A stretch of DNA of 46,747 nucleotides from Thermoplasmatota archaeon (GTDB lineage Archaea; Thermoplasmatota; Penumbrarchaeia; Penumbrarchaeales; Penumbrarchaeaceae). The stretch lies in NCBI GenBank assembly GCA_029762535.1, contig JARVGK010000023.1, positions 1 to 46,747 on the forward strand, written 5' to 3'. Position numbers and translations under genes: made by a program. A model generated the notes under the pieces. The model was not told where the DNA came from. It worked only from the letters and a program-made list of their open reading frames with translations, and searched no databases. Below are positions 24,011-27,044 of this stretch, in pieces. Every line of letters begins with the position of its first letter. Positions within the stretch are counted from its first letter, which is position 1.

Positions 24011-24856
24011 TCACTCTTCGTTGCCAGAAGATGATCCCTCCTCGGGGATCCCGAGGTCGCCGAGCAGGCCCTTTGGATATCCATCCTCCGATGGTCCCGC
24101 CTCGTAGTAAGCCTCGCCTCTGGATCCCTCCTCCTGAGGCCTCTCATCCTCTGGTCCGTCATCAGGATCACGAAGCTCTCTGGCGGGGGAACTCCGGTCC
24201 TCTTCTCTCGGGTATGATGAGCCATTCTTCTTCTCCGAGGATGACTTCCTCACAGCGATGATGATAACCACCAGTATGAGAACGCCTCCTATCAGGAAGA
24301 GCATGAACATGCACAGCGCTGATGAGGCATCCTTGCTCATAACGGGTCCAAAAGCCATGTTATCTTCAGATTCCCTCCCGCCGGGTCCCGTCTTGTAATC
24401 GGCGGTGATCCCTACTGCTGTAAGATCTATGGTCCCGTAAACTCGGATGTCGAACCTCCCGTCCCTGAATATCAGGATCTCTACCCTGTAAATGTCCCGG
24501 TTCGGGATCCTCACCCTCAGCTTGCCCTCGGCCGAGGTCTTTTTCGGTATGTTGGAGAGCGTGTCCTGGGCTTCGTCCATCGCGAGATTGCTTCGCGTCT
24601 CAATAGTAAAGGCGCGGATCTTCAGCGTGTCGATCTCCTTGTCCCCGATGTTGGAGATGAATATCATGATCTCGATCTCGGAGCTTTCCTCTCCCTCCTC
24701 CACGAGCCCGAAATAGACGTCCTCCACCTTCAGATCCGGTTCCCCCTCCTTATGGAAAAGGACGTATCCGAGGAGGCCTGAACCGACGAGCAGAAAGACG
24801 GCCAGAGCGTAGATCCCGGCATCCAATGCCTTGAACCCCTTCCTCATTGGGACCAC
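24011..24856 (-). CDS. Membrane-anchored Ig-like protein (DUF7490-like) with two TM helices
   Basis: N-terminal TM, L.VEDVYF, FISNIG, NLAMDE, YRVEILIF.DG, second TM, acidic tail; paralog of 24844..25488. Confidence 0.55.
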   Translation of the reverse strand: MVPMRKGFKALDAGIYALAVFLLVGSGLLGYVLFHKEGEPDLKVEDVYFGLVEEGEESSEIEIMIFISNIGDKEIDTLKIRAFTIETRSNLAMDEAQDTLSNIPKKTSAEGKLRVRIPNRDIYRVEILIFRDGRFDIRVYGTIDLTAVGITADYKTGPGGRESEDNMAFGPVMSKDASSALCMFMLFLIGGVLILVVIIIAVRKSSSEKKNGSSYPREEDRSSPARELRDPDDGPEDERPQEEGSRGEAYYEAGPSEDGYPKGLLGDLGIPEEGSSSGNEE

Positions 24857-25488
24857 CTCCTCCTCCTTGCGGCCGCGAAAATTGCCGCCGTGATGAAGAC
24901 CGCCGTGATGAGAAGGGCGATCCCGGGGAACGGGAGGGCGCCCTCATCCTTGGGAACAGCTGCGCTGTCGCCGTCGGTCGTCTGGTAATCCTTTCCCCCT
25001 GCGCCCTGATGGGCCAGGTTCACGTAGCCCAGGCCCTTGACGCTTATGAGGCCGTCCTTGAACACTATGAGATCGATCCTGTAGGTGACGTTCTTCTCGA
25101 ACTCCATCTCGGCGGAGAATTCCACGGTCTTCCCTGCGGGGACCGTGCCTATGCTGAGCTCGATGTCGTCCACGGCCAGATTGGTCTTCTTATCGATCCC
25201 GAAGCCTCTGAGCTTTGATACACAGTCCTTCTCACCCTTGTTGGTGATGAAAGCGGTTACGCTCAGTCGGTATTCCCCGTTCTCCGATGGCAGTAGGACG
25301 AAGTAAACCTCCTCGACCTCGAGGAAGGCATCGGTCTTCTGATGCTTTTTGATCACGTCGCGGTAGATGATGGCGGCTCCGAAGAGGCCAACTATCAAAA
25401 GTAGCGTGATCACTATCACGATCCCGAGGATCCGGTGCAAAGGCATCTTTTCGTCTTTCATGTTATCACATCGTAAAAATAATACCAA
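24844..25488 (-). CDS. Membrane-anchored Ig-like protein (DUF7490-like) with sorting-signal-like C-terminus
   Basis: LEVEEVYF, FITNKG, TNLAVDD, YRIDLIVFKDG; ends LPFPG-hydrophobic helix-RRRR; start may be 25461 (MKDE). Confidence 0.55.
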   Translation of the reverse strand: MVLFLRCDNMKDEKMPLHRILGIVIVITLLLIVGLFGAAIIYRDVIKKHQKTDAFLEVEEVYFVLLPSENGEYRLSVTAFITNKGEKDCVSKLRGFGIDKKTNLAVDDIELSIGTVPAGKTVEFSAEMEFEKNVTYRIDLIVFKDGLISVKGLGYVNLAHQGAGGKDYQTTDGDSAAVPKDEGALPFPGIALLITAVFITAAIFAAARRRRWSQ

Positions 25489-25529
25489 TGTCGGTACTTA
25501 AGTAGTTTGAAACAAACTTTTTACAAAAA

Positions 25530-25780
25530 ATGGATGATAAGAATCGAGTGGGCCGTTCCGGACCGATTAAAAATGCCAGATGGCATTTTCAAAGTCAATG
25601 TACTCACATCAATTGTTCGTAACGTCCCACTCTGCAAATAATGGATAATAAGGATCGAGTGGGCCGTTCCGGATCCGTAAAAATCCTTCGGATTTTCACT
25701 CTCAATGTACTCTCATTAATTATTCGGGTCGTCCCACTCTACAAATATTCATTAATGAAAATCGAGTGGGCCGTTCCGGA
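25530..25780 (-). repeat. tRNA-linked tandem repeat: two units (111 and 107 bp), each carrying a copy of the tRNA-Val 3' end
   Basis: ATCGAGTGGGCCGTTCCGGA (20 bp) at 25543, 25654 and 25761 (last copy overlaps the tRNA); units 25530-25640 and 25641-25747 align end to end. Confidence 0.9.
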
Positions 25781-25840
25781 TTTGAACCGGAGACCTCCGC
25801 CATGTCAAGGCGACGTCATAACCAGCTAGACCAACGGCCC
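25767..25840 (-). tRNA. tRNA-Val (anticodon GAC), no intron, CCA not encoded
   Basis: GGGCCGT-TG-GTCTAGCTGGTTATGAC-G-TCGCC-TTGACAT-GGCGG-AGGTC-TCCGG-TTCAAAT-CCGGA-ACGGCCC-A forms a complete cloverleaf. Confidence 0.97.
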
Positions 25841-25892
25841 ATGTACAAGACTGGATACCCCGATCGGGGGAATATCGACAACATGCAGAACG

Positions 25893-25900
25893 ATATAAAA
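25893..25900 (-). promoter_or_regulatory. Putative TATA box of tRNA-Val
   Basis: TTTTATAT on the minus strand, ~50 nt upstream of the mature 5' end. Confidence 0.5.
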
Positions 25901-25913
25901 CTTGTCCCCGCCC

Positions 25914-27044
25914 TCATATGAGGTTTACTTCGACTATACGAAAAGACGAGGCGAACCTGATGTGGTTCATATCGGCCCCGATCGCCGGGCCGTTGTCCGC
26001 AACGCTCACGGTGATATTGTACCTGCCGACCTTGGTATAGGTATGCTTGAGGTTGATCGTTGCCGGATTCGTGGTCAGTTCGTATTCGTAGATCTCATCG
26101 TCATCGTCCCAGTTGATCATCAGCGAGGTCAATCCACCGTTGGAATCCGGATCCAACGCCCTGCACGTCACCTCCATCTCCTGGTTCACACGTATCCTGG
26201 AGGTAACGACGTTGAACTGGGTGATGACCGGGGGCCTGTTTATGAACCTGGTCGCATCCCCGCCTTCGGGATAGATGGTCCTGTATTGTGAATCCGCCTT
26301 AACGTGCTGGTTCACCATGCTGGCGCTGGCTCCATACCACCCCATGATGCCGCTCGTTATCCTGAATATCTCGGAATAGTTGCCATCGTTGAGGTCGCGC
26401 TCCTCGTGCATGTATCGGGAGATCCCCAATTCCTCCCCGTTAGGGTCCGTTATCAGGACGCTCATCTGATATGCCTTGTGGAACCTCTCTATGTTGAAAC
26501 CCTTGCCGATGCTCTCGCCCAACGAGAATAGAGGTGTGACGACGACGAACGCGGCATACTCGCCGGTAAGCGGATCGGTCATCTCCTGTATGGTCATGTT
26601 CAATGATGTCGGCACGAAAGCGGCTATGTAATCGCTCTTGTCAGAGGCATCCCCGACACTCGCCTCTATCTCGTAGAGACCGTTCCCGACGACGAAGGAA
26701 TCGTATTTTATATCGACGTATGTCTGCTCGTTCTTGACGTTCTTATCAGCGCTGTGAACGACCTGCCCTTCATGTCTTATGGTGATCCTCGCCGACTCGT
26801 CGAGTCCGCGGAATCCGTCCTTTACGCTGACAAGGGTGAACCTTATGGAATCGTATCCACCGTCACCGTTCGTGTCCACATCCTCCGGGTTGATCACCGA
26901 TACCACTTTCACGTCAGGGCTCCAGAATAGGAAGAACATGAAGCTTGACAGAAGGATAAGTGCTACCACTATGGCTATGATCGGTCCCAGGCTAAGCCCT
27001 CTGGGAGGCTGCATCTCCTGGACCTCGACGGCATCGACTGTCAT
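25914..27044 (-). CDS. N-terminally anchored PKD-domain surface protein
   Basis: TM IIAIVVALILLSSFMFFLFW; DTNGDGGYD Ca-type motif; NRPPVI...A.DPD...INWDD...HTY...G.YNITVSVADN. Confidence 0.65.
   Translation of the reverse strand: MTVDAVEVQEMQPPRGLSLGPIIAIVVALILLSSFMFFLFWSPDVKVVSVINPEDVDTNGDGGYDSIRFTLVSVKDGFRGLDESARITIRHEGQVVHSADKNVKNEQTYVDIKYDSFVVGNGLYEIEASVGDASDKSDYIAAFVPTSLNMTIQEMTDPLTGEYAAFVVVTPLFSLGESIGKGFNIERFHKAYQMSVLITDPNGEELGISRYMHEERDLNDGNYSEIFRITSGIMGWYGASASMVNQHVKADSQYRTIYPEGGDATRFINRPPVITQFNVVTSRIRVNQEMEVTCRALDPDSNGGLTSLMINWDDDDEIYEYELTTNPATINLKHTYTKVGRYNITVSVADNGPAIGADMNHIRFASSFRIVEVNLI

Follow-up and report, generated by a model that had tools for sequence, protein, structure and literature searches.

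Gene-less inserts behind archaeal tRNA genes look like a previously undescribed kind of tRNA-targeted mobile DNA

Organization of the locus behind tRNA-Val(GAC)

The window (the whole 46,747-nt stretch of Thermoplasmatota DNA that was analyzed) contains an intact tRNA-Val(GAC) gene, and the final 14 nt of this tRNA recur twice in a short array directly behind it (Table 1). If an insert is defined as all of the sequence between two tRNA-end copies, then this array holds two complete inserts and the beginning of a third. Element 1 is composed of the trailer CTC, a 24-nt AT-rich linker, a 17-nt antisense arm, two hairpins, and a terminal ACGGA. Element 2 has the same layout. The third-element remnant retains CTC and a linker resembling that of element 2, and it lacks an arm. 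Hairpin 2 consists of an A-run, a stem, and a T-run, a module that is common to nearly all of the element types in this genome.

An earlier note on this DNA had described a block consisting of the tRNA-Val end and 6 nt of trailer that is regenerated by each unit of the array. This 20-nt block does have exactly three exact occurrences, compared with 0.00 expected from 100 shuffles. The two inner hairpins are also present as the note described them, and the linkers, which it gave as about 23 nt, are 24 nt in length.

Table 1. Positions of genes, repeats, and predicted structures at the tRNA-Val(GAC) locus
Feature	Position	Strand	Remarks
Gene upstream of the tRNA	25914-27044	-	PKD domain
tRNA-Val(GAC)	25767..25840	-	Intact, no encoded CCA; ARAGORN; Rfam RF00005, 62.4 bits
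Y0, final 14 nt of the tRNA	25767..25780	-	tRNA positions 60-73, TCCGGAACGGCCCA; the block that repeats
20-nt block TCCGGAACGGCCCACTCGAT	25761-25780, 25654-25673, 25543-25562		Last 14 nt of the tRNA plus 6 nt
Element 1	25674..25766	-	Type A, sub-lineage A1, 93 nt
5' arm of element 1, GAGTGGGACGACCCGAA	25739..25723		
Junction hairpin H0-1	25723..25780	-	Y0 + CTC with the arm of element 1, over the 24-nt linker
Hairpin 1 of element 1	25702..25719	-	TTAATG-AGAGTA-CATTGA; one G.U pair on the tRNA-sense strand
Hairpin 2 of element 1	25677..25699	-	GTGAAAATCC-GAA-GGATTTTTAC
Y1, first downstream copy of the final 14 nt	25660..25673	-	Local Val-GAC type
Unit inside first insert	25739..25657		83 nt; 87.4 bits with model R1
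Element 2	25563..25659	-	Type A, sub-lineage A2, 97 nt
5' arm of element 2, GAGTGGGACGTTACGAA	25632..25616		
Junction hairpin H0-2	25616..25673	-	Y1 + CTC with the arm of element 2
Y2, second downstream copy of the final 14 nt	25549..25562	-	
Unit inside second insert	25632..25546		87 nt; 72.5 bits with model R1
Left-end remnant of third element	25522..25548	-	Repeat family D2, 86% identity
Two paralogous DUF7490 genes downstream of the array	24011-25461	-	

Folding of the inserts and the best-supported helix

The 5' arms of both elements are 78-83% complementary to the 20-nt block and share an A.G mismatch, so the near-complement with which the earlier note opened each unit is real. The note had closed the unit by pairing this arm with the tRNA-end copy at its far end. 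Each unit is predicted to fold as a three-way junction, with z scores of -5.0 for RNA and between -4.8 and -5.4 for DNA. Folds of the opposite strand are nearly as good (z = -4.4 and -5.1). However, each arm pairs at least equally well with the upstream tRNA-end copy across the linker, creating junction hairpins with predicted DNA folding energies of -12.5 kcal/mol (z = -4.1) for H0-1 and -12.6 kcal/mol (z = -4.3) for H0-2. A fold of the whole read-through RNA likewise picks the upstream pairings. If an element were circularized, then the two alternative pairings would merge into a single helix.

It is the upstream pairing that covaries family-wide. We compared the three bases before the TGGG of each arm with the three bases after the upstream tRNA-end copy. 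Among related genomes, which are non-independent samples, and in a model-based alignment, which leans towards the structure of the model, 71 of 75 of these trailer-arm combinations are Watson-Crick pairs (shuffled mean 37, maximum 55), as are 122 of 150 combinations between the arm and variable tRNA positions (92.7 when shuffled), and none of 5000 shuffles reaches either observed value. Eight different trailer triplets are represented (CTC, TTC, TTT, CCA, CTG, TCC, CTT, and CCT), and in many copies the trailer pairing extends over 4-6 nt. The same arm bases are complementary to the bases after the unit's own downstream copy at 43/75 positions and to CCA at 26/75. A primer-binding site for mature tRNA is ruled out because the arm pairs with the genomic trailer and not with CCA.

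The trailer bases lie outside of the tRNA, so conservation of the tRNA does not explain why they match the arm. The match implies that trailer, linker, and arm move as one and that the element starts with the base right after the discriminator. It also defines the conserved helix, in which the tRNA end and trailer pair with the trailer complement and antisense arm. The best-supported helix therefore spans the AT-rich linker and is not the unit as it was drawn before.

Distribution within the genome

Of the 40 tRNA genes in the genome (2.96 Mb, 93% complete), 21 are followed by copies of their own 3' end. The 43 copies are spaced about 95-190 nt apart, and several unrelated, similarly built insert types lie between them, often interleaved. 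The copied block has a discrete left edge: 26 copies begin at tRNA position 59/60, 14 begin at 55/56, and 3 begin at other positions. Its right end is at position 73-75, and the duplication measures 14 or about 19 nt. Type-A copies occur behind Val-GAC, Val-TAC, and Pro-CGG. A different insert type is found at six or more tRNAs (Gly-GCC, Gly-CCC, Glu-CTC, Glu-TTC, Leu-TAA, and Ser-TGA). Local copies flank it in every case, and the tRNA contributes just 4 nt to its junction hairpin.

When compared with element 1, the tRNA-Val(TAC) insert on contig C34 shows 98% identity (91/93) and element 2 shows 73%. Local tandem duplication is ruled out because element 1 is closer to the C34 copy than to its neighbor. 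The decaying local duplication that the earlier note had set against its own proposal is likewise contradicted by the C34 match, and also by the presence of the core in many genomes of the family (see below). Element 2 carries an arm adapted to Val-GAC, and the 3' half of this element is similar to the tRNA-Pro(CGG) copies. Judging from these sequence relationships, the array is best read as two separately acquired type-A copies, and we count the near-identity of element 1 with the C34 insert as pointing to a recent transfer.

Occurrence in related archaea

A covariance model (R1) built from 11 type-A units finds type A in 14 of 24 family genomes, representing 6 of 7 genera, at E<=0.01. The 7 genomes of genus g6 yield no type A. 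At E<=1e-4, matches remain in 10 of the 24 family genomes, and the 13 genomes from elsewhere in the class have none. We examined 41 matches together with their flanking sequences. All of these units have the orientation of the tRNA and end with the last 14 nt of the local tRNA, and they are located either 25-31 nt downstream of tRNA-Val, Ile, Met, or Pro or within arrays of at most four units. The core for which the earlier note had proposed to look behind other tRNAs is thus found at Val-TAC and Pro-CGG in this genome and at Ile, Met, Val, and Pro in other genera, and the covariation of the arm with the host tRNA end that it anticipated is observed. Its conserved hairpin 1 is a feature of this genome; in other genera the corresponding structure is a variable small hairpin.

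Units at the same tRNA vary in number and sequence between species of one genus. For example, tRNA-Ile is followed in different species by a truncated copy or by one, two, or four units, and the unit sequences differ. Downstream tRNA-end copies of some kind extend beyond the family: they are present behind 2 of 7 sampled tRNAs in a genome from another family of the same order (G024) and behind 5 of 7 in a genome from another family of the same class (G029), and they are present behind none of 6 in a genome from another class (G038). A pattern scan of a genome collection returned a few Thermoplasmatota assemblies and chance bacterial matches. The type-A right-end pattern has no match in viral contigs. 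The scan of metagenome contigs returned two matches, both of them attributable to chance in high-GC bacteria. It yielded no strain variants, and we saw neither empty sites nor excised forms nor polymorphism among strains. A full-text search of the literature found no account of such elements in archaea.

Origin of the flanking tRNA-end copies

Element 1 is a hybrid that may indicate where the flanking copies come from. Its arm suits Val-TAC (GACCC with GGGTC), whereas both of the tRNA-end copies that flank it are of the Val-GAC type (GGAAC). Because the host's own last 14 nt are found on both sides of the insert, we read the block as a target-site duplication. A conservative crossover within the block would leave one copy of the donor type, so the two local copies favor duplication of the target. 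Combined with the fixed edges of the block, they favor staggered cleavage at about 59|60 and 73|74 that is followed by fill-in. In this one case (element 1) the local flanks appear to be more compatible with target duplication than with an att core that travels with the element. The hybrid could also have resulted from ectopic gene conversion involving related units. One observation goes against a simple duplication model: many arrays end with a partial left end, which it does not predict.

Search for a mobilizing enzyme

The earlier note saw no recombinase or HUH enzyme in the window, and we also find no mobilizing enzyme there. The neighboring genes encode DUF7490, PKD, DUF58, and glycosyltransferase proteins. 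The searches beyond the window cover a 93%-complete assembly and genomes that are metagenome bins, from which mobile genes may be missing. There are no matches to the Y1/HUH transposase domain (PF01797) in the genome, and control genomes respond to this search. No RVT_1 reverse transcriptase, TnpB, or casposase (Cas1 outside of CRISPR) is found in the assembly. It does encode one IS110 transposase (C22:32710-33153), which is not near any array. The only two PF00589 matches in the genome are a Xer-like recombinase on contig C25 and a tyrosine integrase fragment (C53:7237-8098, 45.9 bits) situated 500 nt downstream of tRNA-Arg(TCT) and truncated at the end of its contig. Branched hairpin repeats are not recovered around C25:101143. 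The integrase fragment probably belongs to a classical integrated element.

The sole Cas1 of the genome (C5:61000-66800) is a 555-aa Cas1-containing frame with a 91-aa neighbor, located beside cas2 and by a CRISPR array that has a 37-nt repeat and at least 35 spacers. Cas1 is found in 5 of 24 family genomes. It is absent from all 3 genomes of genus g5, which carry 3-15 copies, and from a 97%-complete relative with 7 type-A copies. We reject a casposase as the mobilizer because the only Cas1 in this assembly is CRISPR-linked and Cas1 is missing from element-rich relatives. A larger autonomous relative was not apparent on contig C7, where the 2.8 kb between tRNA-Ile and a tRNA-Pro-type array encode DUF362/ferredoxin and unknown proteins and no recombinase.

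Comparison with known systems

Each of the known systems that we compared differs from these inserts in at least one defining feature. The closest in architecture is the E. coli tyrT tRNA-linked repeat. Its copy of the tRNA 3' end, from the account of Egan and Landy in 1978, reportedly spans 19 nt. Both it and the archaeal arrays consist of tandem gene-less units behind a tRNA gene that end in the 3' end of that gene; the E. coli units are 178 bp and correspond to the rtT RNA. Unlike the tyrT repeat, the archaeal inserts comprise several types at about 20 tRNAs, have an antisense arm that tracks the host, and occur in a whole archaeal family. RtT (Rfam RF00391) has no match here, and a cmscan of 24500-26800 at E<=10 gives only the tRNA and chance matches. 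The function of the tyrT repeat is itself unresolved (bioRxiv 10.1101/2024.07.17.603846).

By analogy, the closest systems in mechanism would be casposons, the IS200/IS605 family, and folded-hairpin recombination sites. The nearest mechanistic precedent may be the family 2 casposon of Aciduliprofundum boonei, which occupies a tRNA-gene 3' end by the T-loop motif TCAAATC, makes a 14-15-bp duplication, is predicted to insert in tandem, and accepts single-stranded ends (PMC5137440, PMC6614799). It resembles the inserts in having a Thermoplasmatota host and a duplication of 14-15 bp beside the tRNA T-loop. In A. boonei only 5 bp of the duplication lie within the tRNA, compared with tRNA positions 60-73 for the inserts. 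The inserts have no terminal inverted repeats and no TCCCC end of the casposon kind. Comparison of their own ends (CTCGAT... and ...ACGGA/AATCGG) by eye shows no more than about 6 nt in common in some copies, and in other genera there is no similarity. A classical MITE, with a duplication of 2-10 bp at many kinds of site, is ruled out by the missing terminal inverted repeats and by the 14- or ~19-nt duplications at tRNA ends.

The IS200/IS605 elements and their gene-less derivatives also have end hairpins, an internal segment that pairs with the target, and insertion 3' of a specific sequence. Their pairing involves 4-5 nt, and they do not duplicate the target. In contrast, 14-nt local copies flank each insert here, and a Y1 transposase is absent from the assembly. 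Integron attC and the CTX phage attP(+) that is used by XerCD are recombination sites formed by folded single strands. A circular form of the inserts would similarly fold into an imperfect hairpin that mimics a duplex target, and serial insertion regenerates the target. Differences from these sites are the lack of R'/R'' core motifs and of IntI, and local flanks that a single crossover does not predict. Archaeal integrase islands and proviruses at tRNA genes likewise displace and regenerate the 3' part of the tRNA. Those that give rise to tRNA fragments are 9-23 kb and carry the integrase (PMC4383910; PMC9897764), compared with 93-190 nt and no gene for these inserts.

On paper, the array also resembles an insertion into the tRNA at position 59/60. 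The read-through RNA (25522-25840, minus strand) has a minimum-energy fold in which the 5' acceptor strand of the tRNA pairs with the last tRNA-end copy and the arms pair with the upstream copies. Non-canonical archaeal tRNA introns are known to occur at position 59/60, so the elements, if they insert there as single-strand transposons (see below), could be a DNA-level source of such introns. A bulge-helix-bulge (two 3-nt bulges and a 4-bp helix) is not present at the borders on inspection. The arm helix has 1x1 mismatches only, which are 7 bp apart, and a 4-bp TCCG/CGGA border pairing is found in element 1 only.

Proposed mechanism and alternative explanations

On balance, we lean toward regarding type A as a non-autonomous, gene-less DNA element of ~95 nt that targets tRNA 3' ends, duplicates its target, and is mobilized in trans. 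Such an element would insert at the 3' end of a tRNA gene and leave the gene intact. The element opens with a 3-6-nt trailer directly after the discriminator base and continues through an 18-25-nt AT/T-rich loop into the trailer complement, which runs into an imperfect antisense tRNA end. The tRNA/element junction consequently lies inside a long hairpin stem. The last part of the element is a small variable hairpin followed by the A-run/stem/T-run hairpin. Type A is accompanied in this genome by several other types, and between them they are found at about half of the tRNA genes. The trans-acting enzyme may recognize the structure of the tRNA gene at a constant position next to the T-loop, with staggered cuts giving the duplication and the junction hairpin serving as a recognition or joining structure. 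This scheme retains part of the earlier note's picture of mini-elements inserted serially by a trans-acting recombinase or HUH enzyme: the core recurs and the arm covaries as that picture would have it. Other parts of the picture are lost, since the pairing is with the upstream copy, the flanks are local, and the assembly has no Y1/HUH enzyme.

A more specific reading, which is possible if rather doubtful, is that the elements represent a putative novel class of transposons, very small in size, which would move as single-stranded DNA and target tRNA-gene 3' ends. The hairpin formed by the first bases and the antisense arm might then align the cut end of the tRNA gene with the end of the element. 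A host enzyme or a new one would insert the element at 59/60 beside the T-loop, producing a 14-nt duplication.

The units might instead be functional structured RNAs that are co-transcribed and cut by RNase Z/RNase P, or independently transcribed, and that multiplied because they are useful. We regard this as unlikely. It would account for the stable three-way junction of each unit (z about -5) and for the G.U pairs that hairpin 1 in the window requires on the sense strand, and the E. coli tyrT repeats do yield a processed RNA, rtT (bioRxiv 10.1101/2024.07.17.603846). The sense strand also folds better in 31 of 39 whole units, with a mean advantage of 3.0 kcal/mol, and G.U pairs make up 8.9% of predicted stem pairs in the sense strand versus 6.5% in the antisense, a weaker bias than in the genome's own tRNAs (11.7% versus 6.7%). 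The helix that covaries best looks less like RNA, with no G.U in the first three pairs of the trailer helix and no RNA-type wobble bias in the arm helix (18 G.T versus 20 A.C). Hairpin 2 has 3 G.U and 4 A.C combinations. We do not rely on the 45:3 excess of G.U over A.C in hairpin 1, since the model forces a conserved TTGG/TTGA motif into this stem in other genera. In most genera the trailer is followed by a run of 5-7 T, which should terminate archaeal transcription before the arm is reached. A candidate promoter motif (ATTTGTA/TTTATA) precedes the arm in the linkers of this genome only and is absent from other genera. The lack of an Rfam match at E<=10, the varying number and sequence of units at the same tRNA in different species, and an arm that complements the genomic trailer rather than CCA also argue against an RNA function. 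The balance of these sequence features favors a DNA-level element, and the predicted folding advantage of the sense strand leaves room for an RNA role.

Two other origins appear quite improbable to us. The units could be scars, or minimal "attP-only" circles, of tyrosine integrases that target tRNAs, in which case the element itself would carry the tRNA-end copy. One class of copies begins in the T-loop (55/56), a place where crossover is said to occur according to Williams in 2002, and serial integration results in arrays. The genome contains the integrase fragment beside tRNA-Arg(TCT) and the Xer-like recombinase, and integrase islands are typically recognized by direct repeats of the tRNA 3' part on either side of the insert (PMC4383910; PMC9897764). 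An integrase would be expected to leave a donor-type copy, yet one lineage is found at many tRNAs with differing ends and its flanks are always local. About 20 targets would also require many integrases, compared with two PF00589 matches, and none lies in or beside any array that was examined. The last possibility, to which we assign the same low probability, is that no dedicated machinery is involved: slippage or unequal crossing-over at the hairpins and ectopic conversion via the T-arm would spread the units, and template switching at quasi-palindromes would correct their arms. Quasi-palindrome correction, which is reportedly a process described by Ripley and by Lovett, would yield near-perfect Watson-Crick arms without G.U, as observed. 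A conversion tract that ends within the flanking copies would suit the hybrid element 1, and partial units do often close arrays. Such processes do not readily explain transfer to tRNAs with unrelated 3' ends, where there is no homology on the right side. They also leave aside the discrete edges at the same structural positions in 20 different tRNAs and the use of one architecture by several unrelated element types.

If the type-A elements are mobile as we propose, then they would be among the smallest site-specific mobile DNAs known. Choice of target by tRNA structure, with an arm that is retuned to each host, would point to an unrecognized or repurposed insertion enzyme in an archaeal class that has received little study, and possibly to a recognition principle that can be retargeted. 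The elements bear on two old puzzles, the tRNA-linked repeats of E. coli and the extra pieces found at odd positions of archaeal tRNAs. Their tRNA-end copies will also mislead the mapping of genomic islands from displaced tRNA fragments.

Additional arrangements of tRNA-end copies

Several other loci in the genome depart from the simple array. The array of tRNA-Met(CAT) (C29:1-4400) consists, in this order, of three mini-units, a gene-bearing block of ~2.5 kb, and a further mini-unit. The block is itself flanked by copies of the tRNA-Met 3' end, which suggests that larger cargo can occupy such arrays; a PF00589 scan finds no integrase in it. An array of alternating type-B and type-A units at tRNA-Pro(CGG) appears twice (C7:38300-39000 and C44:1-520), with units that are 100% identical. 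The C7 copy sits behind a run of N. The pair is likely either an assembly duplicate of one locus or a second array with its tRNA hidden in the gap.

Lone left ends, which consist of trailer, linker, and arm and have neither hairpins nor a downstream tRNA-end copy, occur behind tRNA-Ile (C7:41640-41710), behind tRNAs that have no other insert, and at the far end of most of the arrays, including those on contigs C44, C10, C21, C25, C33, C58, and C102. An armless type-A fragment comprising half of hairpin 1 and hairpin 2 is located away from any tRNA (C25:47957-48022).
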